From the IMG/VR virus record IMGVR_UViG_2872152978_000007: a stretch of 31,815 nt of DNA. One strand, written 5' to 3'. The translations under genes were made by a program, and so were the position numbers. This document shows, one piece after another, positions 1 through 31,815 of the stretch. The notes under the pieces were generated by a model. It was not told where the DNA came from. It worked only from the letters and a program-made list of their open reading frames with translations, and did not search any database. This DNA comes from a virus (taxonomy: Duplodnaviria > Heunggongvirae > Uroviricota > Caudoviricetes). The stretch's first letter is position 1. Each line of letters begins with the position of its first letter.

Positions 1-381
1 ATGCAGAAAAATGTGAATCCCGGCAGGCGAAAAGGCTGCCCTAATTATCCTCCCGAATTTAAACAGCAGCTCGTTGCTGCCTCCTGTGAACCCGGGATAT
101 CCATCTCAAAACTTGCTCTTGAAAATGGCATTAACGCCAATCTGTTGTTCAAATGGCGACAACAATGGCGCGAGGGAAAGCTGCTATTACCTTCTTCAGA
201 GAGCCCCCAGCTACTTCCTGTGACTCTCGATGCAGCTGCCGAACAGCCAGAATCGCTCGCAGAGGATCCGGAAACCCTCAGTATCAGCTGTGAGGTAACG
301 TTCCGGCACGGGACGCTCCGCTTCAATGGCAATGTCAGCGAAAAGCTCCTGACTCTGCTGATACAGGAACTGAAGCGATGA
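1..381 (+). CDS. tnpA: IS66-family accessory protein TnpA (start may lie upstream of window)
   Basis: 126-aa ORF MQKNVNPGRRKGCPNYPPEFKQQLVAAS...; identical to copy-2 ORF 19801..20202 apart from the latter's 7 extra N-terminal residues. Confidence 0.85.
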   Translation: MQKNVNPGRRKGCPNYPPEFKQQLVAASCEPGISISKLALENGINANLLFKWRQQWREGKLLLPSSESPQLLPVTLDAAAEQPESLAEDPETLSISCEVTFRHGTLRFNGNVSEKLLTLLIQELKR

Positions 382-725
382 TCCCGTTACCTTCCGGGAC
401 CAAAATTTGGCTGGTTGCCGGTATCACCGATATGAGAAATGGCTTCAACGGCCTGGCGGCAAAGGTGCAGACGACGCTGAAAGACGATCCGATGTCAGGT
501 CACGTTTTTATCTTCCGTGGGCGTAATGGCAGTCAGGTAAAGCTCCTCTGGTCTACCGGCGATGGACTGTGTCTGCTGACCAAACGGCTGGAGCGCGGCC
601 GCTTCGCCTGGCCGTCAGCCCGGGATGGCAAAGTGTTCCTCACACCGGCACAGCTGGCGATGCTCCTTGAAGGTATCGACTGGCGGCAGCCTAAAAGACT
701 GCTTACGTCCCTGACTATGTTGTAA
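378..725 (+). CDS. tnpB: IS66-family TnpB
   Basis: 115-aa ORF MIPLPSGTKIWLVAGITDMRNGFNGLAAKV..., ATGA overlap with tnpA, identical to copy-2 ORF 19457..19804. Confidence 0.9.
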   Translation: MIPLPSGTKIWLVAGITDMRNGFNGLAAKVQTTLKDDPMSGHVFIFRGRNGSQVKLLWSTGDGLCLLTKRLERGRFAWPSARDGKVFLTPAQLAMLLEGIDWRQPKRLLTSLTML

Positions 726-773
726 GCCTCTTTATCCTGGTCGACGCTGAATGAGCCTGGTAATATACCCGGT

Positions 774-2311
774 ATGAGCAGCTCACTTCCTGACGATATC
801 AATGCACTGAAACGTCTCCTTGCCGAACAGGAGGCGCTGAACCGTGCCCTGCTGGAAAAGCTGAACGAGCGTGAACGCGAAATAGACCATCTGCAGGCAC
901 AGCTGGATAAGCTGCGCCGGATGAACTTCGGCAGCCGCTCCGAAAAAGTCTCCCGTCGTATCGCACAGATGGAAGCTGACCTGAAGGCACTTCAGAAAGA
1001 AAGTGATACCCTTACCGGTCGGGTTGACGACCCGGCCGTGCAGCGCCCGCTGCGTCAAACCCGCACCCGCAAACCGTTCCCCGAATCACTCCCCCGCGAT
1101 GAAAAACGGCTGCTGCCGGCAGCGTCATGCTGCCCGGAATGTGGAGGCTCACTGAGCTATCCGGGTGAGGATGCCGCCGAACAGCTGGAGTTGATGCGCA
1201 GCGTCTTCCGGGTTATCCGGACTGTACGTGAAAAGCATGCCTGTACTCAGTGCGATGCCATCGTGCAGGCCCCGCGCCTTCACGGCCCATCGAGCGGGGT
1301 ATCGCAGGACCGGGGCTGCTGGCCCGCGTGCTGATCTCAAAGTATGCAGAGCACACCCCGCTGTACCGCCAGTCTGAAATGTACGGCCGCCAGGGCGTGG
1401 AGCTGAGTCGTTCACTGCTGTCGGGCTGGGTGGATGCATGCTGCCGGCTACTGTCACCGCTGGAAGAAGCGCTTCAGGATTATGTGCTGACTGACGGTAA
1501 GCTCCATGCTGATGACACGCCTGTCCCGGTGCTGTTGCCAGGCAATAAGAAAACGAAGACCGGGCGGTTATGGACCTACGTTCGTGACGACCGTAACGCC
1601 GGGTCAACGCTGGCGCCGGCGGTGTGGTTCGCTTACAGCCCGGACAGAAAAGGCATCCATCCGCAGACCCATCTTGCGGGGTTCAGTGGTGTACTGCAGG
1701 CGGATGCATACGCCGGGTTCAACGAGCTGTACCGGGATGGCCGGATAACGGAAGCCGCCTGTTGGGCTCACGCCCGCCGTAAAATCCACGATGTGCACGT
1801 TCGCACCCCGTCAGCCCTGACGGAGGAAGCGCTGAAACGGATCGGCGAACTGTACGCCATCGAGGCAGAGATAAGGGGAATGACGGCGGAGCAGCGCCTT
1901 GCCGAACGTCAGTTGAAAACGAAACCGCTGCTGAAATCCCTGGAAAGCTGGCTGCGTGAAAAGATGAAAACCCTGTCGCGACACTCAGAACTGGCGAAAG
2001 CGTTCGCATACGCCCTGAACCAGTGGCCGGCGCTGACGTACTATGCAGATGATAGCTGGGCTGAGGCGGACAATAACATCGCTGAAAATGCGTTGCGGAT
2101 GGTCAGTCTGGGCCGCAAAAACTACCTGTTCTTCGGTTCGGATCATGGAGGAGAGCGGGGAGCGCTGCTGTACAGCCTGATCGGGACGTGCAAACTGAAC
2201 GGAGTGGAGCCAGAAAGCTACCTCCGCTATGTCCTTGACGTCATAGCCGACTGGCCGATAAACCGGGTCGGCGAACTGCTCCCCTGGCGCGTAGCACTGC
2301 CGACTGAATAA
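774..2311 (+). pseudogene. tnpC: IS66-family transposase TnpC, frameshifted
   Basis: Split into ORFs 774..1334 and 1250..2311; copy 2 has one intact 512-aa ORF (17870..19408). Copy 1 has a run of 4 C at 1270..1273 where copy 2 has 5 (G5 at 18908..18912 on the plus strand). Confidence 0.85.
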
Positions 2312-2348
2312 CACATCCCCGTCAATACGGTTCTTGCTGCACGCTTAC

Positions 2349-4375: not shown

Positions 4376-4713
4376 GCAAGCACCTTAAAATCACCATCAT
4401 ACACTAAATCAGTAAGTTGGCAGCATTACCAAACTGTCCGCGGGATTTGTGTACAGCAACATTATCCAGACGTTTCATATCATGCCGGATTCCCCCAGCC
4501 GGGATATTTTTGATACCTGGTCAACCACATCCGGGCCAGTCGGGCTGTATTCCGTTGTAACGCTGTCGTCCTGCTTCCGGCGATTGGCCGTAAATATACC
4601 TGCGTGAATGGCGTACTCAAACAATGGAAAGCGCTGCCTGATGCAGCTCGTACGTTGCAGCCAGGGCAGGCGGTTATTGAGTGGGAAACCATTACTCCGG
4701 AGGTTTTTAACTG

Positions 4714-5118: not shown

Positions 5119-5325
5119 ATATCCCCCCGCGTTATCTCGACCCCGACAGACCGTTCGGGGTGGTGGATTACGTTAATGTTCCCCGTACCATTGCGACCGT
5201 TATCTCCTCCGGTAAGGCTTCAAAAGCTGAACTGGATTCTGTCCTTGGTGTGCAGGACTTATGGGATCTGCTGGAAATAATTCATGTGGATGCCCATAAC
5301 GAACAGGTGATACAGGAGAACAGAA

Positions 5326-7346
5326 ATGGCGCAGGTACTTGATGAGCTTGTTCTGTCCCTCGGGATTGATGACAGGGACTTTACTGCCGGGGAACAGGCA
5401 GTACATGCTGCCCTTAACCGGCTCACGACGGTGATGGAAGGTGTCGCTGACACATTCAGTCAGGGACAGAAGAAAACCAGTGAATCACTGGAAAAAACCG
5501 GAAAAGATGCTGATAAAACGGCCCGTCGAATGGAAGATGCCGGGAAACGGGCGTCCCGTTTTTTTTCAGGAATCCGTAGCGAGATTCTGGCTCTTGCGGG
5601 TGTCAGTCTGACGCTGGGGGGGCTGAAGAACCTGGTAACAGGTTTTGCCCGTGATCTGAACCGTCTGTCCGTGGAATCCGATGCTTTTGGCATGAAGGCC
5701 AGAAATCTGGACGGATGGTTACGGGCTGCGCGGGCAAATAATGTTGATGAAGGGGAAATGTCTGGGGCATTTTCCCGGCTTGCAAATGCAAAAGCGGCCT
5801 TCAGAGCCGGAAGGTCCTTTGATCCTGTGTTACAGGATTTGTTTCAGGTTGCAGCCAGGGCGGGCATTAGTGTTGATTTAAATACTGACAGCACTGAAGC
5901 CATCATGCGCAAGCTGGCGGTTATTTTTCCGCGACTGACAAAGTCCGAACAAACTGCCTACGGCAACGCGCTGGGCTTCAGTTATGCCGGACAGCAGTTT
6001 CTTGGCTCCGGTCATGCGCTGAAAGATGTGGACGAATTTACTTCCCGTTCGCAGGTTACGCCGGGGCGTACAGCGCTGGCCCGTAAGCTACGAAAAGAGC
6101 TTGTTGAGCTCGATCAGACCTGGTCCGGCATCGGGATGACGATTAGCACCGCGTTGATGCCGTACGCGCTGAAGCTCAGCCACTGGCTGGAGACACTCGG
6201 TGACTGGATGCAGCAACATCCGGAGGAAGTGAACAGGTTTATCACCACATTTCTGAATGACGTTGAGTCAGTGGCCTCCCTAGCGAATAAGGCTGCCGGA
6301 GAACTGGGGGCTGGCAGAATGTCATTATTACGCTGATCGGGCTGAAAGTGGCGTCATGGGTGCGGGGGCTGACAAAAGCCCTCAGTGGCCCCGGAGGCCT
6401 TCTTTTTGCGATAACGGCGCTTTACCCGGTTGTTGACGGATTACTGACATCCATTGTTGGCAGGGAAAATAAGGACTGGCTGGATTCACATGGTTTTTTC
6501 TGGGCTTCAGACGGGACTTTCTTTTTCAATAAGAAAGAGATGGAGACGTATCAGACAAAACTGGATGCCGGAGAAAAGCCTGGCAACATCACCCGGGCAC
6601 AATCACCCACAGTATGGCAGCAGGGCATGCTGGATACTCAGGCTTCTCAGGCAACCGGGAGGGAAGCAGCCTTCGGTGAATCCTGGCTACAGGGTATGCG
6701 TGCGACGCAGGAAAAACTCGGTAATGCCATGCAAAACCGCCAGCGACCGACGAAGACCGGGGAAGCCCTGTTAGGCTGGCTGCAACCGAAACTGTCTCAA
6801 CTGGAGGAAAAATATAACCTGCCGCCCGGACTGCTGCGCAGCGTTGCGATCACCGAATCCCGTGGTAATCAGTTTGCCGTCTCACCTGCTGGTGCGATGG
6901 GACTGTTTCAGTTCATGCCGAAGACGGCCAGTGAATTTGGTCTGAGGGGGAACGATGCCTTTGATCCCGAAAAAGCCGCTGATGCCGCCGCGAGAAAACT
7001 TGGTGGCCTGATACGTTTTTTTCATGGCGATCTGGCTAAGGCTCTGGCGGCATATAACTGTGGAGAGGGAAATGTTCAGCGTAAGGGACTGGCTGCTGCT
7101 CCGGAGGAGACCCGCAACTATATTCCGCGGGTGCTGGCGAACCTGCCTTATCCGGGTGCGGCAATGGCCATACGGTCGCTCCATCCTGCGCCTGTATCGC
7201 AGTCCACCGTAACGGAAACCACGCATATCGGGACACTGAATGTCACCACAACGTCGGACAATGTGAAGGGTATTACCGATGACGCACGTCGGCGTATCAC
7301 GAATTCGGCGCTTGTGTCGGTTTATTCCAGCGGGGTAACAGGATGA
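5326..7346 (+). pseudogene. Tail tape measure protein with C-terminal lytic transglycosylase (SLT) domain; frameshifted near 6290..6320
   Basis: ORFs 5326..6336 and 6348..7346 in different frames; downstream frame is open back to a stop at 6288..6290; G5 run at 6306..6310; SLT motif LLRSVAITESRGNQFAVSPAGAMGLFQFMP...AYNCGEGNV in the second part. Confidence 0.65.
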
Positions 7347-8080
7347 GTTTTTCTTTCGATAATATTTCCCTGAATAACTTTTCGCTCAGTGAAAGTAACG
7401 TACTGAGTGCAGTTCGTGGCGGCTGTGTCCTGGGACTCATTAATAGTGTACTGGCACCGTCATTCGGTATTTATTACGCACGGAATGATCCGGCAGGTGC
7501 CCATCAGAAGGGTGGCAAACCTTTCTCCCCGGATTCTTTTGTTGTCGTTGAGGTGGGCGCGGAGGCTTCTGTTTCCACCGTCCCCGTGGAGCAGGGGGCT
7601 TATACCACCTTTAATAAAATCCAGAGATCGCCGGAACTGCATGTGACTTTCACTGTAGAGGGGTGGACGGCCTTTTCCGGATCCGTCCCGAACCTGACAA
7701 ATTTTTCCACCACCTCGCGGACGAATGTGCTGGAAACGCTTGAAAGGATGCGTACCACGGCAGGACTCTACGATATTGAGACGCCGGACAAGACATGGAC
7801 ATCCTGCGACCTTGTGAAATATGACTACCGAATGCGAAGTAATAATGGTCCGACCTTACTGACGGTTACTGCGGTATTTCAGACCGTAATGAATACAGGA
7901 GAGGTGTCAGTGGGAAGTACGGATAAGTCGTCTCCCACGGACAACGATAAAGCAAAAGGGGCCGCATCGGTTAAAACGCAGCCAGTTACGGCGTCGGTGA
8001 CACAACCGTCAGACGCTGACAGACGAAGCGCCACGAACAGGGGATCACCTGATGCTGGAAATTGTTTTATCTCCCGTTAA
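7343..8080 (+). CDS. Phage tail/baseplate protein (unassigned)
   Basis: 245-aa ORF, ATGA overlap with tape measure; position after tape measure in a Mu-like tail module. Confidence 0.45.
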
Positions 8081-8354
8081 AGCCCAGCAGTTTACGGTGA
8101 CACTGGGCGCTCAGGTCTGCACCATTCGCCTGAATCAGCGTACTACGGGGATGTATATCGATATCATTGTTAATGGTGAACCGTGCCTGTATGGCGTGCT
8201 GTGTCTGAATAATAACCGGATTGTCCGGTACGGATACCTGCCGTTTCAGGGGGACCTGTTTTTTACCGACACGGAGGGGAATAGTGACCCTGACTGGCGG
8301 GGGCTCGGATCCCGGTACCGGCTCTACTGGCTGTTACCTGAGGAACTGATATGA
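8052..8354 (+). CDS. Phage tail/baseplate protein (small, unassigned)
   Basis: 100-aa ORF overlapping its neighbours, typical phage operon packing. Confidence 0.4.
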
Positions 8355-9220
8355 GCTACAGACAACGTAAAATAACGGTGGAGTTCACTCTTTCAGACGG
8401 ACGAACGTTTGGTAATGGCCAGGGCAATATGCTGACCATTACCGACGCAAGCTGTTTTGCCAGTATTGCCGTATATGGAGGGGTGGCTGGTACACAAATC
8501 ACGCTGTATATCTGGGGAATGTCACCGGCGCATATGACGAATTTAAGCTGGCGCGGTGTGTGGCGACAGGAGCAGAGTACCGAAAATAAAATGCGGCTGT
8601 GGGCCGACGGGCGGCTTATTTTTGAAGGTGATATTACTGATGCATACGCCGACTACAACCAGGCGCCGGATATTCCGCTCATTCTGACAGGACAGATTCA
8701 TTTTAATCTGCGTAATCAGCCGGCGGCAGATTTCAGCGCAAAGGGCGATGTTGCGGTTGCAGATATTATCCGTGCGCTGGCGTCAACTGTCGGGCTTGGA
8801 TTTGAAAACCAGGGGGTCAGCCGCAGTCTGTCTGACCCGCATTTTTCCGGTAATGTTGTACAACAAATGCTGGATGTCGCTTCAGCCGCCGATATTAACA
8901 TTGATCTGGGGAATGTGGAGAAAGTCACCATCTGGCCGAAAGGGCAGAACCGGAATATTCCGCCGGTACTGATTTCGCCGGATCACGGACTGACTGGCTA
9001 TCCGGTTTACACCATGACCGGACTCAGCGCCACCACGATATTCTGCCCCGATCTCTTTACTGGCAGGCCAGCGCATCTGGAATCGTCACTGCCTGATATG
9101 ACGGGCGATTATACGATCACAGGGGTGATACACACCATTACTTCGCGAACCGTGGGCGGTCCGTGGAGTTCCAACTGTACCATGATGAGGGCTGAAGAAA
9201 ATGGCACAACCACTCAGTAA
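8351..9220 (+). CDS. Phage baseplate protein (unassigned)
   Basis: 289-aa ORF with ATGA overlap upstream; precedes the gpV-like spike gene. Confidence 0.5.
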
Positions 9221-9790
9221 CCCGACAGACGTGAACAGCGAAATCAATGCACAGGACTTTATGCTGCGGCAGTTTCTCGGACGTCATGCGTTTATCACTC
9301 TGGGACGGGTGGTAGCCGTGGAAGAGGGATTTATTGAGGCCCGACCGATGGTAATGGGCGTTGCAGCAGACGGTTCCCCGGTTGAACATGAGGTGATTTA
9401 TAACATTCCCGTATGGCGACTACAGGGGGGCGGTAATGCGGTGATTATCCCGCCACATGTGGGGGATATCGGTTTTCTTGCCATCTGGCTGGGTGGCGTG
9501 CTCAACGGTGATCCCGTCCAGTTTGTGGTATTTGATGACAACCAGATACGGATTGTATCTCCCTGGAAAGTGGAGATATCCGCGCCTGAGGGGGTGATTA
9601 ATGCGCCGAAAAGCTTCACCGTTAACTCACCACAAATTGCGCTGAACGGCGATACCGCCGTCAGTAAGGGGCTTGACGTTACCGGGCAGTCCAGGCTTTC
9701 CGGCGGTTCGAACATCGGGGTATTGATTTTGGAAACCACGTTCACGGCGGCGTTGAGTCCGGCGGCTCAACCACGCAGGGATCCCGGTAA
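9201..9790 (+). pseudogene. Baseplate spike/assembly protein V-like (Mu gp45 / P2 gpV family), frameshifted
   Basis: N-terminal frame runs from 9201; the C-terminus ...IDFGNHVHGGVESGGSTTQGSR (resembling the gpV C-terminal H-x-H...SGG..TG motif) is in another frame ending at the TAA at 9788..9790; switch point is the G4 run at 9717..9720. Confidence 0.6.
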
Positions 9791-9802
9791 ACAGGAGAAA
9801 AC

Positions 9803-10158
9803 ATGCAGTCACGATCACTTCTTCTTGACACCGGGACATGGGATATCCTGCTTGATGATACCGGAAATCTTGCCATTACTGATAATCCCCATGCGGTAGC
9901 TCAGGATGTGGCGTGTGCGTGCAGTACTTTTCTGGGGAGTGCTGGTACGACTCAACGGCTGGCATACCTTACTGGCCACGCATCCTCGGACACTGGCCCG
10001 GCACACAACTGGTGAATGCCACTCTGCAACAGGAAGCACTTAAACTGCCGACCGTGAGCGCCGCTGTCTGCCAGGTCACAGCTGATCAAACCCGGACAGT
10101 AACAGGTGTGCTGCGTATTACAGATACCAATAATGACATTTTTACGGTACTGCTATGA
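9803..10158 (+). pseudogene. Mu gp46-like baseplate protein, probably frameshifted
   Basis: ATG at 9803 with AGGAG upstream; ORFs 9803..10015 and 9913..10158 in different frames cover one gene-sized interval. Confidence 0.45.
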
Positions 10159-11392
10159 GTGAAAATAAATCTTTTTCTACCGCAGTGCCCGCTGTACAGA
10201 TTTCGGATAGCGGGCTGAATGTGCCGGATGAAGCGGATATTCTGAGCGGCAGGCTTGCTGATTTTTCGGCGGCGCTGGGCGGGGCCATGAGTACCAGTCT
10301 GAGCAGTCCGCAGGGACAACTTGCATCCAGCGAAAGCGCCATTATTGCGGATAAAAACGATCAGTTGCTGTATATCGTTAACCAGATCAACCCTGACTTT
10401 TCCAGTGGTCGCTTTCAGGATGCAATAGGCAGGATTTATTTCCTGGAGCGCCGTGGGGCCACAGGTACGACAGTAACAGCGACCTGTACCGGGCTGGTTG
10501 GCACGCTGATCCCGGCGGGCAGTATGGGGCAGGATGAGGCCGGTTATAAGTATGTCAGTCAGACGTCACTATCGGCGCATCAGGGCAGGTTGATGCGGTA
10601 TTTCTGAATTTGTCCACCGGCCCCGTCGGCTGTCCTGTGGGGACGCTGAATAAAATTTATAAGGCAATACCTGGCTGGTCAGGTGTCACTAACGCCCGTG
10701 CCGGTGTGCCGGGCAGCGATGAGGAAACCCGTGCGGACTTTGAAAACCGCCGACGTAATTCAGTTGCCCGTAATGCCCGGAATATTCTGGAAGCCATCCG
10801 GGGTGAAATACTCTCCACGGTAGAAAACGTGGTGGATGTTTACGTCACCCATAATCCGAAAAAAACAGAACAAAAAGCCGGAGTCAGTCAGTATCCATTA
10901 ACACCCGGTTCGCTTTATGTTGGCGTGTACGGCGGCAGCCCGGCAGATATCGCGGCGGCCATCTGGCGTAAGGCTCCGCCGGGTATTGATATGAATGGCA
11001 ACACAACGTTCACTGTTGCAGATAAGGAGTACGATCCGCCGTATCCTGAATACGTAATCAGCTGGCAGACACTCAAACCCGTCAGTCTGCATGTCAGTGT
11101 GACGCTGAAAAAAAGTGACTACCTGCCTTCAGATATTACCCGACAGGTACAGCAATCCGTGCTGGACGCATTTAATGGTACAGATGGTGGTCTGCGGGCA
11201 AGGGTTGCCTCTGTTGTCTCTGCCGGGCGCTACTATGCCGGCATTTACAAAACCGATCCGGAACATATTGATATTCTGGGCCTTACTGTGAGCCGTGACG
11301 GTTCGTCATGGACAACGGCTGTCACTTTCGGGATAGATGAGATTCCGGTTCTGGATGTGTCGGATATCAGTGTGAAACTCCAGGAGGCATAA
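10155..11392 (+). pseudogene. Baseplate J-like protein (Mu gp47 family), probably frameshifted near 10550..10610
   Basis: ORFs 10155..10607 and 10610..11392 abut in different frames; second frame is open back to a stop at 10547..10549. Confidence 0.55.
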
Positions 11393-11688
11393 CGTGCAGA
11401 ATGTGGCTGCCACTGTGCTTGCGCAGTATGCTGCCAGCCCCGACTCAATGCCCTCATTAACAGCTTTAACGCAGCGCTTTCCCCCGACAGTTTTATCAGT
11501 GATTTTTATGGTCTTATCTGGAACATCGATACCGCAGAAAAGTATGGTCTTGATGTCTGGGGAAAGATTGTGGGTGTCAGTCGCCGGCTGACGGTAAAGG
11601 ACGATTTTAATTACCTGGGCTTCAGCGAGTCCAGGATGGACACCCCGGTAATGGATGATCCCTGTCCGTTTAATCAGTGGATTTGCCC

Positions 11689-12594
11689 CTATATTTCCAG
11701 ACATCTGTTATCACTTAACCCATTACAAGCCCGCTGCCGCAGATATTCCCGTGGCGAGCGATAACCCAGCGCACTATGCGGATGCCATTCGTTATAATGC
11801 TCGAACGCCTCTGCAAGGTTCTTTGCTGCCGTTAACCCGTCTGGTTTGGGCATGATACTGATGTAGTCACGCTTTATCGTTTTCACGAAGCTCTCTGCTA
11901 TTCCGTTACTCTCCGGACTCCGCACCGCCGTGTTCTTCGGTTCAAGTCCCAACATCCGGGCGAACTGGCGTGTTTCATTAGCCCGGTAGCATGAACCATT
12001 ATCCGTCAGCCACTCCACTGGAGACGACGGAAGATCGTTGCCGAAGCGGCGTTCCACCGCTCCCAGCATGACGTCCTGTACTGTTTCACTGTTGAAGCCG
12101 CCGGTAGTCACCGCCCAGTGCAGTGCCTCACGATCACAGCAGTCCAGCGCGAACGTGACACGCAGTCTCTCTCCGTTATCACAGCAGAACTCGAACCCGT
12201 CAGAGCACCATCGCTGATTGCTTTCTTTCACGGCCACTCTGCCTGTATGTGCCCGTTTCGATGGCGGTACAGCAGGCTTTCGCTCAAGCAACAGCGCATT
12301 CTGGCGCATGATCCGGTAAACACGTTTGGCATTGATCGCAGGCATACCATCAAGTTCTGCCTGTCTGCGAAGCAGCGCCCATACCCGACGATAACCATAC
12401 GTGGGCAGCTCTCCGATAACATGGTGTATACGGAGAAGCACATCCGTATCATCAGTGTGACGACTGCGGCGGCCATCCATCCAGTCATCAGTTCGTCTGA
12501 GAATGACGTGCAACTGCGCACGCGACATCCGGAGACAACGGCTGACTAAGCTTACTCCCCATCCCCGGGCAATAAGGGCGCGTGCGCTATCCAC
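11689..12594 (-). CDS. insD: IS2 transposase InsD (orfB)
   Basis: 301-aa ORF ...[39 protein letters not shown]... Confidence 0.9.
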
Positions 12595-12917
12595 TTTTTT
12601 GCCCGTCCATATTCAACGGCTTCTTTGAGGTGTTCATTTTCCATCGTTTTCTTGCCGAGCAGGCGCTGGAGTTCTTTAATCTGCTTCATGGCGGCAGCAA
12701 GTTCAGAGGCAGGAACAACCTGTTCTCCGGCGGCCACAGCAGTAAGACTTCCTTCCTGGTATTGCTTACGCCAGAGAAATAACTGGCTGGCTGCTACACC
12801 ATGTTGCCGGGCAACGAGGGAGACCGTCATCCCCGGTTCAAAGCTCTGCTGAACAATTGCGATCTTTTCCTGTGTGGTACGCCGTCTGCGTTTCTCCGGC
12901 CCTAAGACATCAATCAT
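12552..12917 (-). CDS. insC: IS2 InsC (orfA)
   Basis: [56 protein letters not shown]... Confidence 0.9.
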
Positions 12918-13320
12918 CTGTACCCCAATGACTAGTCTAAAAACTAGTATTAAGACTATCACTTATTTAAGTGATACTGGTTGTCTGGAGATTCAGGGGG
13001 CCAGTCTAATCAGGCACCGTTTTACAACGGAAAATCGGATACCCGGACTGTTGACCTGTCTGATGCTGTATACCGGCGGCTGATACTGATGAAAGCCATG
13101 TCGAACATTACTGACTGTTCCGTTCCGGATATTAACCGGATGCTGAGATTTATGTTCGGAAAAAAACGGCGGGCTTATGTTCTGAATAATGGTGGGCTGA
13201 GGATGAGTTACATCTTTGAGTCCGCGCTCTCGTTGGCAGAACTGGCGATTATCCAGTCGTCGGGTGCACTGCCGTCCCCGCCGGGTGTTTATGTTTCAGT
13301 AGTTTTAAAGGAGTCCCGTA

Positions 13321-14706
13321 ATGAAGGCCAGTGATAAACCCCGCCAGCTGGCGGTCCCCTTTGCGAGTACCGGAGATAAAAACCGTATCCCGGACAAGGC
13401 GACACAGCAGACCAGAGAGAGCGGTAATGCTGCGTATGATTCAGGTTTTCCTCCGGTGACCATGACAGCGGTCTCAGCGGGAGGTATACCGCCACACGGC
13501 AAGGATTTTAACGGTCTGATGTACGATATTACCGCAGCAATACGGTTCGCCCAAGCTGGCGGTTTGTACACGTATAATGCCGGTTTTGCGGGGGCCATTG
13601 GTGGATATGCAAAAGGAGCCATTCTCGCCGGAGTCGCAACAACAGCGGTCTGGCTGAATACCACAGACGATAACCTGACCGATCCTGAAGGCTCCGACAG
13701 TGCGGGCTGGGTAAATCTTCTTGAGGATCCGAAAAGGATATTCCTGCGGCAGAAGAACAATCTGTCAGACCTTCAGAATAAAGGGACGGCACGGGATAAT
13801 CTTCAGGTTTACAGTAAAGAGCAGTCAGATCAACGCTATGTTCATCGGGAAGGCGATAAAATAACCGGAGAGCTGAAAATCCGTGGTGTTAATGCGCTGA
13901 GGATTTTCAACGAAGCTTTTGGCCTGATTTTTCGTCGTTCGGAAGAGTGCCTGCACCTTATTCCCACCAGTGAAGGTCAGGGGGAAAATGGCGATATTGG
14001 TCCCCTGCGCCCGTTCACCATTAATTTGCGGACGGGTGAAATATCCATGTCGCATAAAGTGTCTGTTGGCGGTGGTTCGCAGGTCAATGGTGCGCTGGGT
14101 ATCGGCGTTCAGAACGCCCTGGGGGGGAATTCAATTGTTCTTGGTGATAATGACACCGGATTTAAACAGAATGGAGACGGTATTCTGGATGTTTATGCTA
14201 ATAGTCAGCGTGTATTCCGCTTTCAGAATGGAGTGGCTATTGCTTTTAAGAATATTCAGGCCGGAACTGCCAGAAAATTCACGTTATCCAGCGCCAACAA
14301 CTCCACGAAAAATGCAGCGTTTTATTTGTGGGGTAATCCATCCTGGTCTGTTGTTGCAGAGCTTGGCGATGATTCAGGCTGGCATTTTTTCAGCCAGAGG
14401 AATACAGATAACAGCATCACGTTCGCCGTAAACGGACAGGTAATTCCGTTAAATTACGGAAACTTCGATGCCCGCTATAAATATCGAACAGAGGGGGTAC
14501 AGGATGTACGGTATGGCCATGAAATGTATTACAGCCCCGGCAGTAACACCGTTTCGTGGAGATTTCGCGCACCTTCGGGACACGGGCTGTCAGGGATAGC
14601 GATATCGGATACCGGCCGTGACTCAGCGGATAACGTCAACGGCGTGTATTACCGCCCGCTTCAGAAACTGATTAATGGCACCTGGTATAACGTGGCGAGT
14701 GTTTAA
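13321..14706 (+). CDS. Tail fibre protein
   Basis: 461-aa ORF with AAAGGAG ribosome-binding site; follows the gp48-like gene and precedes a tail-fibre assembly gene. Confidence 0.7.
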
Positions 14707-14884
14707 CAATGTTGCATTTAAAAAATATTACTGCGGGCAATCCGAAAACCGTGGAACAATATCAGCTGACAAAACAATATGATGTCACCTGGCTTTTTTC
14801 GGAAGACGGAAAAAACTGGTATGAAGAGCGGTGATGCTGCCAACTTACTGATTTAGTGTATGATGGTGTTTTTGAGGTGCTCCA

Positions 14885-15160
14885 GTGGCTTCTGTTTCTA
14901 TCAGCTGTCCCTCCTGTTCAGCTACTGACGGGGTGGTGCGTAACGGCAAAAGCACTGCCGGACATCAGCGCTATCTCTGCTCTCACTGCCGTAAAACATG
15001 GCAACTGCAGTTCACTTACACCGCTTCTCAACCCGGTACGCACCAGAAAATTATTGATATGGCCATGAATGGCGTTGGATGCCGGGCAACTGCACGCATT
15101 ATGGGCGTTAGCCTCAACACGATTTTACGTCACTTAAAAAACTCAGGCCGCAGTCGGTAA
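14885..15160 (+). CDS. insA: IS1 InsA
   Basis: [40 protein letters not shown]... Confidence 0.9.
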
Positions 15161-15204
15161 CCTCGCGCATACAGCCGGGCAGTGACGTCATCGTCTGCGC
15201 GGAA

Positions 15205-15582
15205 ATGGACGAACAGTGGGGATACGTCGGGGCTAAATCGCGCCAGCGCTGGCTGTTTTACGCGTATGACAGGCTCCGGAAGACGGTTGTGGCGCACGTC
15301 TTCGGTGAACGCACTATGGCGACGCTGGGGCGTCTTATGAGCTTGCTGTCACCCTTTGACGTGGTGATATGGATGACGGATGGCTGGCCACTGTATGAAT
15401 CCCGCCTGAAGGGAAAGCTGCACGTAATCAGCAAGCGATATACGCAGCGAATTGAGCGGCATAACCTGAATCTGAGGCAGCACCTGGCACGGCTGGGACG
15501 GAAGTCGCTGTCGTTCTCAAAATCGGTGGAGCTGCATGACAAAGTCATCGGGCATTATCTGAACATAAAACACTATCAATAA
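15205..15582 (+). CDS. insB: IS1 InsB
   Basis: [65 protein letters not shown]... Confidence 0.9.
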
Positions 15583-16053
15583 GTTGGAGTCATTACCTGA
15601 AGAGCTGAAGAATTTCGCCAGCGACACAATTAAAATAACTTACACCGGAGACGGTCGCGTGGTGTGGGTCGGTAAGGATGTGACAGGCATTGAACCCCGT
15701 AACGCCAGTGTTATTGAAGTTCCTGATATTACCGCCAACCGCCGCATTACCGCGCCGGGTTACTGGTTTTACCGCAATGATGAATTTGTCTTTGACTACA
15801 GACTCAAAGCGGAAGATGAGCGTGATGCCCTTCTGGCTCAGGTCAGTGCCCGGACAGGGGAATGGGAAGAAGACCTGCTGCTGGGGCTAATCAGCGACGA
15901 AGACCGGGAAAAACTGAAAGCGTACCGCATTTACGCGAAATCGCTGCAGGCGATGGATTTCAGTGTCATCACTGATAAAACCTCATACAACGCCATTGAA
16001 TGGCCCGCCTCTCCGGAAATTTCTTCCTGATTTAATTTATCGCGAGAAAAACT

Positions 16054-17466
16054 ATGTCTGTAGTGATATCAGGTGCGCTGACTGATGGCGCAGGTATCCC
16101 CATGTCCGGATACCATATTATTCTGAAATCCCGGGTAAACACCCCGGAAGTGGTGATGCACACTGTTGCTGATGTGATGACAGGAAACGATGGTGAATAC
16201 TGTTTCCATGCGCGGACTGGAAAATATGGTGTGTATCTGAAACCGGGCTGGCACAACGAGTACAACGTTGGCGACATTGCTGTATATGAGGACTCAAAGC
16301 CCGGCACGCTGAATGACTTTCTGATTGCTCCTGATGAGGGCGACCTGAAACCGGATGTCGTCAAACGCTTTGAGGAAATGGTGGTGCAGGCGCAGCAGAG
16401 CGCCGGGGCCGCAGCCGGAAACGCACAGCAGACGGCGCAGGATGTGGCGGCAGCCGCAACGGCCCGTGATGATGCACAACGTTTTGCGGAGAATGCCAGA
16501 CAGGATGCAACCGTCACAGCTGAGGACAGAAAGGCCACTGCGGAAGATGTGACAAGCACAGGAGCAAATGCAGCCGCAGCCGGACAGAGCGCACAGGATG
16601 CCGCAGGTTATGCCCGCGCAGCAGAACAGGCCAAAAATGACATTGATGCTGCGCTTACCGGCACTCTGAAAATGGCTAACCATCTGTCAGAAATCGCAGC
16701 AGCAGGCGAAAAGGCACAACAGAAGTCCCGGGATAATCTGGGGCTGAAAAGTGCGGCCACGATGGAAGCACAGAGCGACATTTACGACCGGACAAAAGGC
16801 CGTCTGGCGATACCCGGCGCATTCGGCTTTGGGTGTGCTTTTCTGCCTGAAGATGTTATCCGTTTTGACACTAAGAGTGATTTCCTGGCCTGGGTAAGGA
16901 ATGCGCTGCCAGGTGAGTATTCCGTTGCTGGCCGCCTGGGCATCATACCCGACACACGGTTTGAAGGGGTGCTCAGCATCCGGTGGACTGATGCACGCCC
17001 TGAGACAACAGAACCGCGGTACAGAGCCAAATCCCTTACTTTTTACGGCATTAACGGCCCCATTTATCACACCCGCTACTGCTACTGGCCCATATCCAGA
17101 CTGACTGACTGGGTGAAAATAAATATAACCACAGAAGATATTATTTACAGAATCGTGGCGAGCTCTGTCCGCAACAGATGGGGAGCCCCTGACATTGGCG
17201 GGCTGATTATTGCTGCGTACCAGGGAGACGCTGACGGTGATAAAGTCATCAGACTTGTCAGGGGGCAGTCATACAGAGGCTCACGACTGGGACCGGTGGG
17301 GATTTCAGTGCCCAGTACTCCCACCGGAACGTATATAGCATCCCCACAATTTTTCATTACGGGATGTTCAGAGCATTCATTACCGGGGTCATATTGCGCC
17401 CTGTCCGGGGTGCCGGATGCACATGTCTCTGGCGCAATGCCCGGGCTTTTTATTCGCACATCGTGA
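16054..17466 (+). CDS. Second tail fibre protein with lambda Stf-like N-terminal domain and Ala/Gln-rich shaft
   Basis: 470-aa ORF MSVVISGALTDGAGIPMSGYHIILKSRVNTPEVVMHTV...GDIAVYEDSKPGTLNDFL... resembling the prophage side-tail-fibre N-terminal domain. Confidence 0.65.
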   Translation: MSVVISGALTDGAGIPMSGYHIILKSRVNTPEVVMHTVADVMTGNDGEYCFHARTGKYGVYLKPGWHNEYNVGDIAVYEDSKPGTLNDFLIAPDEGDLKPDVVKRFEEMVVQAQQSAGAAAGNAQQTAQDVAAAATARDDAQRFAENARQDATVTAEDRKATAEDVTSTGANAAAAGQSAQDAAGYARAAEQAKNDIDAALTGTLKMANHLSEIAAAGEKAQQKSRDNLGLKSAATMEAQSDIYDRTKGRLAIPGAFGFGCAFLPEDVIRFDTKSDFLAWVRNALPGEYSVAGRLGIIPDTRFEGVLSIRWTDARPETTEPRYRAKSLTFYGINGPIYHTRYCYWPISRLTDWVKINITTEDIIYRIVASSVRNRWGAPDIGGLIIAAYQGDADGDKVIRLVRGQSYRGSRLGPVGISVPSTPTGTYIASPQFFITGCSEHSLPGSYCALSGVPDAHVSGAMPGLFIRTS

Positions 17467-17476
17467 GGAATGCACC

Positions 17477-17832
17477 GTGGAAATTAAAAAAATCATTAAT
17501 CCCCGTTATACCGAAAGTGGCGCAGTAGACTGTGACGTTTTTTTTGACGACAGGGACCAGGCAGTCCCCTACACAGCCACCGCTGATGATGTCGCTCCGA
17601 CGGGTCAGCAAATCTGGCAGGAACTGCAAAGCGGCAAATGGGGTGAGATAGCCCCATTCACTGTGACACCAGAAATGCAGGAAGCGGCCAGAGAGGCCAG
17701 ACGTCAGGAAATTGAAGCATGGCGCGCAGAACAGGAGGCGAAGCCGTTCACGTTTGAATGGAACGGTCGTATCTGGAATGCTGGTCCCGACTCACTGGGC
17801 CGCCTGTCCCCGGTAGTCATGCTGGCAAAATC
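17477..17832 (+). pseudogene. Tail-fibre-associated/assembly-like protein, 3' end truncated by IS66 copy 2
   Basis: GTG start with GAGG upstream; ORF runs into the IS66 terminal repeat where the IS-derived TAA terminates it. Confidence 0.4.
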
Positions 17833-17869
17833 GTAAGCGTGCAGCAAGAACCGTATTGACGGGGATGTG

Positions 17870-19408
17870 TTATTCAGTCGGCAGTGCTACGCGCCAGGGG
17901 AGCAGTTCGCCGACCCGGTTTATCGGCCAGTCGGCTATGACGTCAAGGACATAGCGGAGGTAGCTTTCTGGCTCCACTCCGTTCAGTTTGCACGTCCCGA
18001 TCAGGCTGTACAGCAGCGCTCCCCGCTCTCCTCCATGATCCGAACCGAAGAACAGGTAGTTTTTGCGGCCCAGACTGACCATCCGCAACGCATTTTCAGC
18101 GATGTTATTGTCCGCCTCAGCCCAGCTATCATCTGCATAGTACGTCAGCGCCGGCCACTGGTTCAGGGCGTATGCGAACGCTTTCGCCAGTTCTGAGTGT
18201 CGCGACAGGGTTTTCATCTTTTCACGCAGCCAGCTTTCCAGGGATTTCAGCAGCGGTTTCGTTTTCAACTGACGTTCGGCAAGGCGCTGCTCCGCCGTCA
18301 TTCCCCTTATCTCTGCCTCGATGGCGTACAGTTCGCCGATCCGTTTCAGCGCTTCCTCCGTCAGGGCTGACGGGGTGCGAACGTGCACATCGTGGATTTT
18401 ACGGCGGGCGTGAGCCCAACAGGCGGCTTCCGTTATCCGGCCATCCCGGTACAGCTCGTTGAACCCGGCGTATGCATCCGCCTGCAGTACACCACTGAAC
18501 CCCGCAAGATGGGTCTGCGGATGGATGCCTTTTCTGTCCGGGCTGTAAGCGAACCACACCGCCGGCGCCAGCGTTGACCCGGCGTTACGGTCGTCACGAA
18601 CGTAGGTCCATAACCGCCCGGTCTTCGTTTTCTTATTGCCTGGCAACAGCACCGGGACAGGCGTGTCATCAGCATGGAGCTTACCGTCAGTCAGCACATA
18701 ATCCTGAAGCGCTTCTTCCAGCGGTGACAGTAGCCGGCAGCATGCATCCACCCAGCCCGACAGCAGTGAACGACTCAGCTCCACGCCCTGGCGGCCGTAC
18801 ATTTCAGACTGGCGGTACAGCGGGGTGTGCTCTGCATACTTTGAGATCAGCACGCGGGCCAGCAGCCCCGGTCCTGCGATACCCCGCTCGATGGGCCGTG
18901 AAGGCGCGGGGGCCTGCACGATGGCATCGCACTGAGTACAGGCATGCTTTTCACGTACAGTCCGGATAACCCGGAAGACGCTGCGCATCAACTCCAGCTG
19001 TTCGGCGGCATCCTCACCCGGATAGCTCAGTGAGCCTCCACATTCCGGGCAGCATGACGCTGCCGGCAGCAGCCGTTTTTCATCGCGGGGGAGTGATTCG
19101 GGGAACGGTTTGCGGGTGCGGGTTTGACGCAGCGGGCGCTGCACGGCCGGGTCGTCAACCCGACCGGTAAGGGTATCACTTTCTTTCTGAAGTGCCTTCA
19201 GGTCAGCTTCCATCTGTGCGATACGACGGGAGACTTTTTCGGAGCGGCTGCCGAAGTTCATCCGGCGCAGCTTATCCAGCTGTGCCTGCAGATGGTCTAT
19301 TTCGCGTTCACGCTCGTTCAGCTTTTCCAGCAGGGCACGGTTCAGCGCCTCCTGTTCGGCAAGGAGACGTTTCAGTGCATTGATATCGTCAGGAAGTGAG
19401 CTGCTCAT
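17870..19408 (-). CDS. tnpC: IS66-family transposase TnpC (intact, 512 aa)
   Basis: Single [52 protein letters not shown]... Confidence 0.9.
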
Positions 19409-19456
19409 ACCGGGTATATTACCAGGCTCATTCAGCGTCGACCAGGATAAAGAGGC

Positions 19457-19804
19457 TTACAACATAGTCAGGGACGTAAGCAGTCTTTTAGGCTGCCGCC
19501 AGTCGATACCTTCAAGGAGCATCGCCAGCTGTGCCGGTGTGAGGAACACTTTGCCATCCCGGGCTGACGGCCAGGCGAAGCGGCCGCGCTCCAGCCGTTT
19601 GGTCAGCAGACACAGTCCATCGCCGGTAGACCAGAGGAGCTTTACCTGACTGCCATTACGCCCACGGAAGATAAAAACGTGACCTGACATCGGATCGTCT
19701 TTCAGCGTCGTCTGCACCTTTGCCGCCAGGCCGTTGAAGCCATTTCTCATATCGGTGATACCGGCAACCAGCCAAATTTTGGTCCCGGAAGGTAACGGGA
19801 TCAT
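19457..19804 (-). CDS. tnpB: IS66-family TnpB
   Basis: 115-aa ORF identical to 378..725. Confidence 0.9.
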   Translation of the reverse strand: MIPLPSGTKIWLVAGITDMRNGFNGLAAKVQTTLKDDPMSGHVFIFRGRNGSQVKLLWSTGDGLCLLTKRLERGRFAWPSARDGKVFLTPAQLAMLLEGIDWRQPKRLLTSLTML

Positions 19805-20202
19805 CGCTTCAGTTCCTGTATCAGCAGAGTCAGGAGCTTTTCGCTGACATTGCCATTGAAGCGGAGCGTCCCGTGCCGGAACGTTACCTCACAGCTGATA
19901 CTGAGGGTTTCCGGATCCTCTGCGAGCGATTCTGGCTGTTCGGCAGCTGCATCGAGAGTCACAGGAAGTAGCTGGGGGCTCTCTGAAGAAGGTAATAGCA
20001 GCTTTCCCTCGCGCCATTGTTGTCGCCATTTGAACAACAGATTGGCGTTAATGCCATTTTCAAGAGCAAGTTTTGAGATGGATATCCCGGGTTCACAGGA
20101 GGCAGCAACGAGCTGCTGTTTAAATTCGGGAGGATAATTAGGGCAGCCTTTTCGCCTGCCGGGATTCACATTTTTCTGCATATCTGACACTTTGGTTCCC
20201 AC
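19801..20202 (-). CDS. tnpA: IS66-family TnpA
   Basis: 133-aa ORF MGTKVSDMQKNVNPGRRKGCPNYPPEFKQQL... Confidence 0.85.
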   Translation of the reverse strand: MGTKVSDMQKNVNPGRRKGCPNYPPEFKQQLVAASCEPGISISKLALENGINANLLFKWRQQWREGKLLLPSSESPQLLPVTLDAAAEQPESLAEDPETLSISCEVTFRHGTLRFNGNVSEKLLTLLIQELKR

Positions 20203-20273
20203 TACTTATTTGGTGGACACCACTTTGTCTAATTCGTCAGATTCTGACCAGACGGTTCAGGCTGTACGCTTAC

Positions 20274-20622
20274 GCATCAGCGTGCCGGAAAGTTTTTGTA
20301 GCTGTTCAACAGTCGCGCCCTTAAACGAACCGCTACGTAACCAGGCCGCCGATGGGGCAGGACTGAAACGGGAAAACAACAATTGCCCCGGCGTCCTGGT
20401 GGCATTTTTGAAGCCCTGGAAATAAAGCTGAGCGCGTGCGTACTCATCGGATAATGCACCAAAATACGCGGCCACATCATCCGGAGAGGAAAACGGAACC
20501 ACAGTGCCGACCGGAAGTAACGGATTACTGGTCAACAGCAGGCCGTTAAGATCGACGGCATTACCCGCCACAGCCAGCACACCGGGATTTATCTGTACAT
20601 CTTTACTGAGTGGAATTGGCAT
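20274..20622 (-). pseudogene. Contractile tail sheath protein, N-terminal 116 codons
   Basis: ATG at 20622 with GGAGG upstream; MPIPLSKDVQINPGVLAVAGNAVDLNGLL...KLSGTLM reads directly into the IS66 terminus; the 8 bp at 20274..20281 (GCATCAGC) are the exact reverse complement of 2349..2356. Confidence 0.8.
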
Positions 20623-22549: not shown

Positions 22550-23841
<1,292 letters not shown>

Positions 23842-24133
23842 AGCCTCACCTCCGCAAATAACGGATGGCGTAGTTTTACACTGAGAAATGAAAGGGATTT
23901 GAAAAGAAAAAAACGCAAAAGCGGGCGAAACGATATATACAGTAAGGAAAGCACTCTATCCAACAAACCACCCACAGTTAATCGGAATAAAAGCAGAGTG
24001 CTTATGAATGATCGCACGCCCGAAGGTTAGTATTTCTGCACAGCAATTTTGCAAAAAAAGGCGATCATTCATAACTTAAACGTCTTTCAGTCACTCCGGG
24101 ATTTCCCATCATCGCAGACTGAAAGACTCTGAC

Positions 24134-24208
<75 letters not shown>

Positions 24209-24211
24209 ATA

Positions 24212-24287
<76 letters not shown>

Positions 24288-24289
24288 GC

Positions 24290-24366
24290 TGGCCCACCAC
24301 CGAGGACTCGAACCTCGCACCGTCAACTTAGAAGGTTGATGCTCTATCCGGATGAGCTAGTGGTGG
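24290..24366 (-). tRNA. tRNA-Arg (anticodon UCU)
   Basis: Reverse complement CCACCACTAGCTCATCCGGATAGAGCATCAACCTTCTAAGTTGACGGTGCGAGGTTCGAGTCCTCGGTGGTGGGCCA; 7-bp acceptor stem, anticodon loop CTTCTAA; unusual C1-G72 first pair. Confidence 0.75.
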
Positions 24367-24367
24367 T

Positions 24368-24444
24368 TGGTGGCCCTTGCTGGACTTGAACCAGCGACCT
24401 GGCGATTATGAGTCGCTCGCTCTGACCAACTGAGCTAAAGGGCC
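24368..24444 (-). tRNA. tRNA-Ile2/Met-like (anticodon CAU; ileX/ileZ-like)
   Basis: Reverse complement GGCCCTTTAGCTCAGTTGGTCAGAGCGAGCGACTCATAATCGCCAGGTCGCTGGTTCAAGTCCAGCAAGGGCCACCA; anticodon loop CTCATAA; resembles chromosomal ileX. Confidence 0.8.
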
Positions 24445-24532
24445 GGAGGCAGAATAATAACCATATGTCATCACATCTGCAAACTCATCTGACCACCAGC
24501 ACGTTTAACGTCCTGTGCCGTTTTTCAGGTAT

Positions 24533-24554
24533 AAAAAAACCCGCATAAAGCGGG
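24533..24554 (-). terminator. Rho-independent terminator, minus strand (tR'-like position upstream of tRNAs and holin)
   Basis: Minus strand reads CCCGC-TTTAT-GCGGG followed by 7 T (plus-strand aaaaaaacccgcataaagcggg). Confidence 0.6.
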
Positions 24555-24580
24555 CTCTTTCAAATGTCCATGTGAAGTGG

Positions 24581-25749
<1,169 letters not shown>

Positions 25750-25821
25750 TGGAGCACCTGTGTTGTTCTGAGGTGAGCATATCACCTCTGTTCAGGTGGC
25801 CAAATTCAGTGTGCCACTTCA

Positions 25822-26159
25822 CTGATAAAAGCGCCCTGTACTGGTTAGCAATAGCAAATTTACTTCCAGCTGCTCTGATTTCAAGAAAGCTGTACACCTC
25901 CCTTATGCCTATATTTTTAACCGGAACACCACCAAAGTATTCACTTATGATTTTCAACCTCTGGTTGTGTCTTTTCATGGTGTTTGTGCTTAATTGTCTA
26001 CGCTCTATTTCATTTCTGAAATTTAATATCAGCTCGCAGAATAATGTTACGCTATTACCTTTTATTCTATCCAGTAAGCTTATATGTTGCGTGGATAATA
26101 ATTCCATATTTGCCGCAATAGCCTCATTAACTGCAATTCTTTTGTCTCTTCCGATTCCA
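25822..26159 (-). pseudogene. AT-rich internal fragment of an integrase/recombinase-like gene, truncated at both ends by IS911 and IS1
   Basis: Open frame ...LSTNTMKRHNQRLKIISEYFGGVPVKNIGIREVYSFLEIRA... resembles the N-terminal core-binding domain of tyrosine recombinases; no start or stop of its own. Confidence 0.3.
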
Positions 26160-26174
26160 GGTGATGACTCCAAC

Positions 26175-26570: not shown

Positions 26571-26596
26571 ATCACTGCCCGGTTGTATGCGCGAGG

Positions 26597-31440: not shown

Positions 31441-31815
<375 letters not shown>

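Follow-up and report, generated by a model that had tools for sequence, protein, structure and literature searches.

A tandem two-fibre module in a decayed myovirus prophage, probably a conserved host-recognition unit of the tail operon and not the relic of an invertible segment

The virus sequence IMGVR_UViG_2872152978_000007 (Caudoviricetes; 31,815 nt, hereafter called the window, meaning this whole stretch of DNA) carries two tail fibre genes in tandem between positions 13321 and 17832. Each of them is followed by a gene of the assembly type: fibre 1 by Tfa1 (cassette 1) and fibre 2 by a DUF4376 gene (cassette 2). We consider it highly probable that this region is the 3' end of the tail operon of a decayed temperate myovirus of the XM1/E217 type, belonging to the ipaH-prophage family of Shigella and enteroinvasive Escherichia coli (EIEC), and that the four genes form a conserved, mobile two-fibre module for host recognition in which both fibres were mounted together and no inversion was involved. 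In the intact phage, all four genes would be read from one late transcript. Fibre 1 would be mounted on the baseplate wedge with Tfa1 as its assembly protein, and a ring-forming collar domain would hold fibre 2 around a hexameric ring, for which the likeliest candidates are the neck of a myovirus and the tube/tip junction of a siphovirus. The collar domain of fibre 2 would be followed by a coiled coil and a receptor-binding head, with the DUF4376-type chaperone alongside. Since the two fibres would occupy different sites of the same virion, two receptor specificities would be displayed at once instead of alternately, and the use of the fibres would require no DNA inversion.

The four-gene arrangement itself is already known: GenBank has contained it from the phiP27 genome onwards, RefSeq genomes of E. 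coli and Shigella routinely carry its annotation, and its components are members of known families. The order fibre, Caudo_TAP, PF08400 fibre and DUF4376 was found on one strand in the Stx2e phage phiP27 (L54-L57), the LT-II prophage Rac-SA53 (tail1-4), phage pPE4 (gp67-70) and two EIEC prophages (loci L001 and L002), and the window genes have the order, the common strand and the place at the tail operon end of the phiP27/Rac-SA53-type module. DNA homology between the window and the known phages ran across the fibre 1 shaft, Tfa1, the fibre 2 N-terminus and the DUF4376 gene. In the EIEC prophages, the tail operon was ordered as baseplate J, DUF2612, fibre, Tfa, PF08400 fibre, DUF4376, ipaH effector gene and then host DNA. 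Both cassettes are thus co-linear with single known phages (phiP27, Rac-SA53 and pPE4), the very observation that an earlier sequence-only reading of this DNA had named as speaking against its own interpretation.

To see how regularly the genes occur together, IMG/VR was scanned with the fibre 2 N-terminus, which gave 153 relatives, and 80 loci were kept. In 72 of the 80 loci, fibre 2 was immediately preceded by a Tfa1 homologue on the same strand, and in another 7 the homologue lay 6.5 kb upstream. The DUF4376 gene was found downstream of fibre 2 in all loci with at least 4 kb of downstream room (21 of 21). Among complete E. coli genomes, 87 of 5,426 contained the junction of Tfa1 with fibre 2. 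In an E. coli O121 strain (L088, NZ_CP119441.1, 15811-20850), the Rac site (ttcA-intR ... uspF) holds a copy of this junction that is 98.9% identical to that of the window; there, a remnant consisting of a tail protein fragment, Tfa, a PF08400 fibre and a DUF4376 gene was followed by an IS66-family element and sitABCD.

Cassette 2 also appears, from its genomic contexts, to be an autonomous unit, because it follows gpD in P2-like prophages and Stf-Tfa in a lambdoid prophage, and because related C-terminal heads are paired with DUF4376 proteins of ~190 aa in SerU-LTIIb and the Vequintavirinae phage Av-05 as well. In the P2-like prophages (L080-L086), the cassette lay 6.5 kb from H-G, the order being H, G, FI, FII, E, T, U, D, PF08400 fibre and DUF4376 gene (for example L081, 2271-12567). 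The lambdoid prophage (L009, 6639-13830) carried Lom, Stf (PF08400), Tfa, a second and broken PF08400 fibre, the DUF4376 gene and an ipaH-type NEL E3 ligase gene. This locus therefore holds two PF08400 fibres in tandem, and its Tfa, fibre 2 and DUF4376 proteins were 90-97% identical to those of the window.

The gene identities in cassette 1 were clear (coordinates of all features are given in Table 1). Fibre 1 matched the PHROG tail-fibre family phrog_6859 (E=2.6e-124), with its N-terminal part matching phrog_11982, and its orthologue in EIEC prophages carries the annotation 'phage tail fiber protein'. BLASTP and blastn resolved it into a mosaic of an N-terminal anchor (residues ~1-140), a shaft (~140-304) and a tip (305-461). 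The anchor was specific to this tail and baseplate type, the shaft was 80-90% identical to phiP27 L54, Rac-SA53 tail1 and a P2-like gpH, and residues 255-461 were 91% identical to a lambdoid Stf. Furthermore, the H-G junction of the P2-like phage Wphi resembled the 3' end of the fibre 1 gene together with the start of Tfa1. Cassette 1 is best explained as a baseplate fibre whose N-terminus fits this baseplate and whose shaft and tip can be swapped with those of P2-, Mu- and lambda-like phages.

The start codon of Tfa1 (ATG at 14709) lies 2 nt after the fibre 1 stop. As the sequence-only reading had noticed, this gene is disrupted by IS1, an insertion sequence (IS) element flanked here by an 8-bp target duplication (TGAAGAGC) at 14822-14829 and 15598-15605; its flanks overlap at 14503-14510 of the EIEC prophage locus L001. 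When the element and one copy of the duplication were removed, a 181-aa protein was restored that matched phrog_136 ('tail fiber assembly') over its full length (E=1.3e-59). The DNA of the 3' fragment was 96% identical to the EIEC orthologue and 85% identical to phiP27 and pPE4. Tfa1 thus has the PF02413 domain and the place right after a fibre gene that characterize the Caudo_TAP family (lambda Tfa, P2 gpG, Mu U), though it is interrupted by IS1.

Fibre 2 had been read from the sequence as a protein with an N-terminus like that of lambdoid side tail fibres, and homology searches identified it as a fibre. The Pfam family PF08400 ('Prophage tail fibre N-terminal') spanned residues 1-131 (E=3.4e-67, 225 bits against a cut-off of 26.6), phrog_2636 matched the protein with E=2.3e-219, and residues 1-110 were 44.5% identical to lambda orf-401/Stf (E=1e-17). 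Its closest protein relatives were from Shigella sonnei, S. flexneri, S. dysenteriae and S. boydii. Among the relatives, the N-terminal ~200 aa were conserved and the C-terminus was variable; the latter was ~32% identical to the fibre of Av-05 and 29% identical to the stf of SerU-LTIIb. The AlphaFold2 (AF2) model showed a beta-sandwich at residues 1-~90, a long helical region at 100-235 and an alpha/beta head at 265-470. The predicted layout is accordingly a collar or anchor domain (1-~95), a long helical coiled coil (~100-235) and a C-terminal alpha/beta head (~265-470).

The gene downstream of fibre 2 encodes a DUF4376 protein and not a Caudo_TAP (Tfa) protein, unlike the arrangement of lambda Stf. 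It is cut by IS66 at 17832/17833, as the sequence-only reading had it. The remaining residues were 92% identical to the intact EIEC orthologue by tblastn, and phrog_1141 matched the gene product with E=2e-87. With the Pfam model of DUF4376 (PF14301), the window fragment scored 23.2 bits, which falls short of the cut-off (25) because most of the domain was lost to IS66; the intact EIEC orthologue scored 59.3 bits, and intact orthologues in general 46-66 bits. The gene likely starts at GTG 17477 rather than at the annotated-style ATG 17417, since GAGGA stands in front of the former and the homology to phiP27 begins at 17463. Experiments have shown that DUF4376 proteins whose genes directly follow fibre genes are needed as fibre chaperones in Alteromonas phage V22 and for the H-fibre of Campylobacter CJIE1 (PMC7289586, PMC7882524; also PMC10579305). 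By analogy, the best explanation of the DUF4376 protein is that it would be a chaperone-type partner of fibre 2.

Every element named in the sequence-only reading was found at its stated position or no more than a few bases from it. Taken as a whole, both cassettes lie in tandem on the + strand and are of different type, as had been claimed earlier: neither fibre 1 and fibre 2 nor Tfa1 and the DUF4376 protein showed any similarity to each other (E>1). The assignments are not due to chance, because the E-values of the homology matches ranged from 1e-26 to 1e-219. The genes are separated by gaps of 2 nt and 23 nt and then by an overlap or a 10-nt gap, depending on the start of the DUF4376 gene, and a promoter and terminator scan of the cassettes gave no signal above shuffled sequences. 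Because of these small gaps and the lack of such signals, we propose that the module was read as part of one late transcript.

How fibre 2 was attached to the virion is suggested by its anchor. The N-terminal domain matched residues 1-94 of Ur-lambda Stf (PDB 9e7m, 9e7m_Ta) with a phmmer E-value of 3.6e-15 and a Foldseek template modelling (TM) score of 0.83, and residues 1-190 matched the N-terminus of the XM1 collar spike gp40 (PDB 7kjk; phmmer E=3.2e-8). As seen by cryo-EM, the collar of Ur-lambda consists of twelve gpStfN domains, lies where the gpV ring meets the gpM ring and carries four side fibres, each a trimer (PMC12617516). In the cryo-EM structure of XM1, gp4 and gp5 of the neck are bound by six trimers of gp40 (PMC10457771). 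Because its anchor is homologous to these solved collar domains, fibre 2 probably served as an extra fibre, of the collar or side type, on the same virion as the baseplate fibre. By analogy with the two structures, it would encircle a hexameric ring of the tail or neck as a collar.

Several points weigh against this reading. The docking site on a myovirus is drawn from one solved relative, XM1 gp40, which is ~25% identical, and the neck terminator of the prophage family gave no sequence match to any solved structure in the PDB. The AF2 model of fibre 2 is modest, with a mean predicted local distance difference test (pLDDT) value of 63.6 and only the N- and C-terminal domains above 70 (70-89). 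Furthermore, the first 110 residues of fibre 2 were 100% identical on different tail backbones, which is hard to fit with a tight, specific interface. Such identical anchors were seen in L062 and L069 (phiP27-type and pPE4-type) and in L009 and L016 (lambdoid and window-type). Some of the loci concerned are decayed Shigella prophages, in which the function is perhaps no longer under selection. The collar may accept enclosed rings of different kinds, fibre 2 may be docked on Tfa1 or distal fibre 1 transferred along with it (a branched fibre), or some of these prophages may be non-functional chimeras; among these, we favour the tolerant collar on the strength of the solved homologues. Finally, experimental work on fibre 2 of phiP27, Rac-SA53 or pPE4 was not found in the literature covered, from which the original phiP27 paper was absent, and nothing functional was found on Rac-SA53 and PF08400. 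For this reason, the simultaneous display of both fibres is what we infer and not what an experiment has reported.

One extension of the collar would account for the identical anchors. The pair of PF08400 fibre and DUF4376 gene was seen on XM1/E217-like, pPE4-like, Mu-like (phiP27), P2-like and lambdoid backbones. It is conceivable, though we put it forward only tentatively and regard it as rather doubtful, that the pair is a self-contained, portable kit for adding a collar fibre to structurally unrelated tails, with an anchor that rings any hexamer of tube or neck size and needs no specific partner surface. Such a kit would explain both the 100% identity of the first 110 residues on different backbones and the place of the pair at the recombination-prone cargo end by ipaH.

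The same observations have also been considered in the light of a branched fibre, in which fibre 2 would dock on distal fibre 1, or on Tfa1 kept at the tip of fibre 1, and the four genes would travel as one structural unit. This would agree with the finding that a single DNA block, conserved at 74-99% identity from one backbone to another, comprises distal fibre 1, Tfa1 and the N-terminus of fibre 2, that a Tfa1 homologue is present in 79 of the 80 loci even if not always adjacent, and that the same fibre 2 anchor occurs with unrelated baseplates. However, both solved homologues of the anchor bind hexameric tail or neck rings and not fibres, lambda Stf has the same domain with no fibre preceding it, and fibre 2 occurs in one locus (L079) where no Tfa1-type gene was detected. 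The co-occurrence of the genes may, moreover, reflect the shared descent of closely related loci in the sample. We therefore judge a branched fibre improbable.

Still less probable, in our estimate, is that cassette 2 was no component of the virion at all, being a hitch-hiking remnant of a lambdoid side fibre at the cargo end of the prophage near ipaH or the attachment (att) site. The cassette is always the last element of the tail operon and adjoins cargo or att, its anchor is shared by backbones that look incompatible, and many of the Shigella copies are broken, all of which would be expected of a passenger. In phiP27, pPE4, Rac-SA53 and most of the 80 IMG/VR loci, however, both open reading frames (ORFs) are intact. 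The conserved N-terminal ~200 aa with a variable C-terminus are the pattern expected of a receptor-binding protein under selection, and the homologous collar spike is a proven virion component of an XM1-type myovirus. These facts argue for a mounted fibre 2, as proposed above.

The sequence-only reading had considered the two cassettes as a possible resolved or frozen invertible segment. In the invertible segments of Mu (G, with Gin), P1 (C, with Cin) and e14 (P, with Pin), alternative C-terminal fibre parts and paralogous assembly genes lie in opposite orientation and share one N-terminus, and inverted 26-bp crossover sites flank the segment. For the core of these sites we searched with AAACC-NN-GGTTT, which we take to be the consensus. 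The layout in the window was a different one: both fibres are complete ORFs on the + strand, each with its own start codon and N-terminal anchor, and the two fibres, like the two helpers, are unrelated to each other, which sets them apart from S/S' (variable parts) and U/U'. With a PinE-type protein, the best tblastn match in the window had E=4, in agreement with the earlier statement that no invertase is present there; nothing that once followed cassette 2 is visible in the window, because an inversion between IS66 copies displaced that DNA past the window edge. At E<=1e-3, the complete genomes of phiP27 and Rac-SA53 and the 3' 17.5 kb of pPE4 gave no match to a Pin/Gin-like gene, and a Pin-like gene was present in none of the 80 IMG/VR loci (E<=1e-5).

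Residual crossover sites, for which a search had been suggested, did not appear either. With one mismatch allowed, the gix/hix-type core was absent near the cassettes, and its single match in the window (at 30068) was at chance level. Inverted repeats within 13000-17832 were likewise at chance level, the longest exact one being 14 nt, a length equalled or exceeded in 28% of shuffles, and repeat scans of the window and four related loci returned only short inverted repeats of low identity. The number of 10-mer inverted-repeat pairs was nominally high (23 vs 11.8 +/- 4.4), a count inflated by overlapping k-mers of a few repeats, and the 12-mer counts were matched or exceeded in 8% of shuffles. 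An exact 12-nt inverted repeat, TCCCGTAATGAA, was found at 13314-13325, spanning the fibre 1 start codon, and at 17353-17364, ~100 nt before the fibre 2 stop. It was rejected as a crossover site and attributed to chance, being neither palindromic nor gix-like; both arms are present together only on this backbone, and other backbones with the same module have the right arm by itself. Another candidate, a 19-nt inverted repeat between DUF2612 and fibre 2 in L001 and L002, was also rejected: it has 2 mismatches, by our estimate ~0.3-0.5 such repeats are expected by chance in 9.5 kb, and it is absent from phiP27 and pPE4. The only invertase gene near any related locus was a pinE-type pseudogene with an internal stop in L002 (19793-20347), just past ipaHb and 4.3 kb downstream of the fibre 2 start; it was judged unrelated, as it lies beyond the ipaH cargo gene with no inverted fibre or Tfa fragments beside it.

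It is thus very improbable that the cassettes once alternated by Gin/Pin inversion and were fixed in tandem when the invertase was lost, for although two fibre-plus-helper pairs with no invertase now visible, the L002 pseudogene and the 12-nt repeat near the outer borders could be quoted in its favour, the identical tandem order recurs on at least four tail backbones, and in P2-like prophages cassette 2 can lie 6.5 kb from cassette 1. Of the earlier proposal, the recombinational mosaic is borne out by the piecewise matches of fibre 1, whereas the invertible segment is not, as invertase, sites and paralogy were all missing.

The comparison with Mu had also rested on the premise of a Mu-type tail, which did not hold. 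Baseplate J matched gp44 of the Pseudomonas phage E217 (E=1.8e-24) and gp16 of the Vibrio phage XM1 (E=6e-10), DUF2612 matched XM1 gp17 (E=1.9e-7), and the sheath matched E217 gp31 (E=1e-15). Judged by these matches, the backbone is that of a simple-baseplate myovirus of the XM1/E217 type and not of the Mu type.

The window itself is a heavily decayed prophage of the Shigella/EIEC kind, and its closest matches among complete genomes were EIEC strains. Five IS copies were found in the prophage remnant: two of IS1, one of IS2 and two of the IS66 family. The sheath gene is split between the two inverted, near-identical IS66 copies, from which it follows that recombination between them inverted the whole tail segment (2349-17832). 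The missing 3' part of the DUF4376 gene and the DNA that followed it should lie beyond the left window edge. The two-fibre module is dead in the window: IS1 splits Tfa1, and IS66 takes the 68 C-terminal residues of the DUF4376 protein, which make up most of the domain. IS2 lies in the DUF2612 gene (11394-13334), its flanks mapping to 12679 and 12670 of L001, and the C-terminal DUF2612 fragment was recognized at 12981-13334 (E=2.3e-31). This gene has a premature stop too, in an ORF that ends at 11591, upstream of IS2. One frameshift each was observed in the tape-measure/lytic transglycosylase gene and in baseplate J, and the spike gene is ~78 nt shorter than in L001; these defects lie at 5326-7346, ~9487 and 10155-11392. 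The prophage homology stops at 22895. The rest of the window (22896-31815) matched IS600, other IS3-family elements and Rac-type early genes (RecE, Rha, YdaT and a replicative helicase) in E. coli genomes.

Table 1. Positions of the two fibre cassettes and of the insertion sequences and split genes around them in the window
Feature	Position	Strand	Evidence and remarks
Fibre 1, baseplate-type tail fibre	13321..14706	+	461 aa, intact ORF
Tfa1 5' fragment (codons 1-40), assembly gene of Caudo_TAP/P2 gpG type	14709..14829	+	sequence read
IS1 in Tfa1, 768 bp	14830..15597	+	IS1 ends read; 98% identity to IS1 copies in phage records
Tfa1 3' fragment	15598..16030	+	TGA stop 16028-16030; Pfam PF02413 Caudo_TAP E=9.3e-26
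Fibre 2, Stf-type fibre	16054..17466	+	470 aa, intact ORF
DUF4376 gene, 5' fragment	17477..17832	+	residues 1-119 of 187; truncated by IS66 at 17832/17833
IS66-family element (tnpA, tnpB, tnpC)	17833..20273	-	ORFs, ends read; truncates DUF4376 gene
DUF3383 sheath gene, nt 1-349	20274-20622	-	adjoins the end of IS66 at 17833-20273 opposite to the DUF4376 gene
Second IS66-family copy, cut by window edge	1..2348	+	99.96% identical to, and inverted relative to, 17833-20273
Sheath gene, nt 340-1485	2347-3492	+	adjoins inner end of IS66 at 1-2348
Second IS1, in tail tube gene	3663-4430		
IS2 in DUF2612 baseplate-wedge gene, immediately upstream of fibre 1	11678..13008	-	ORFs, end read

The locus is of little weight in itself, being a dead copy in an IS-riddled prophage remnant; it is real but ordinary. 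Its value is corrective, in that tandem fibre cassettes without an invertase should not be taken as the relic of a Mu-type switch. For a PF08400 fibre that ends the tail operon of a myovirus, the better annotation is that of a collar or side fibre accompanied by a DUF4376 chaperone. In addition, one anchor domain was met on five tail architectures; if it truly docked on all of them, it might offer a handle for adding receptor specificities to phages and tailocins.

Compared with known systems, the module resembles Mu G, P1 C and e14 P in that two fibre specificities and two assembly-type genes end the tail operon of a myovirus, and Tfa1 belongs to the same broad family (Caudo_TAP) as Mu U and P2 G. 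It differs from them in having no invertase, no crossover sites, no opposite-strand layout, no constant N-terminus shared by the fibres and no paralogy between the two sets, and its two specificities would have been simultaneous rather than alternating. The DUF4376 chaperones of Alteromonas V22 (gp27) and A5 (gp9) and the partner of the Campylobacter CJIE1 H-fibre are alike in their size of ~190 aa, the C-terminal DUF4376 domain and the gene position right after the fibre. However, the similarity of the window protein to them is at the family level only, and PHROGs and GenBank name its subfamily 'tail fiber protein'.

Ur-lambda Stf is like fibre 2 in having a homologous N-terminal domain (44% identity) with an alanine-rich coiled coil next to it, and in being an accessory fibre that adds a second receptor specificity. 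Lambda is, however, a siphovirus with its collar at the junction of tube and gpM, its Stf is followed by a Caudo_TAP Tfa where fibre 2 is followed by DUF4376, and the C-terminal heads are unrelated. XM1 gp40 shares with fibre 2 an N-terminal Ig-like domain and an Ala-rich helix, and XM1 has the same simple baseplate type as the window prophage. The spike gp40 differs in its length (839 aa), in its ~25% identity and in its gene, which lies apart from the tail and baseplate genes gp5-gp18. As a neck-bound trimeric fibre, gp40 is the best model for the site of fibre 2 on a myovirus.

The closest counterparts remain phiP27, Rac-SA53 and pPE4, which have the same gene order, strand and place at the tail operon end, a DUF4376 protein of ~188 aa, and 74-89% DNA identity to the window in the shared parts. 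The baseplate of phiP27 is Mu-like, and baseplate J of pPE4 and Rac-SA53 is only ~23% identical to that of the window. These three phages carry other alleles of the N-terminus and tip of fibre 1 and of the fibre 2 C-terminus (33-46% identity). The window copy of the module, moreover, was inactivated by IS1 and IS66.

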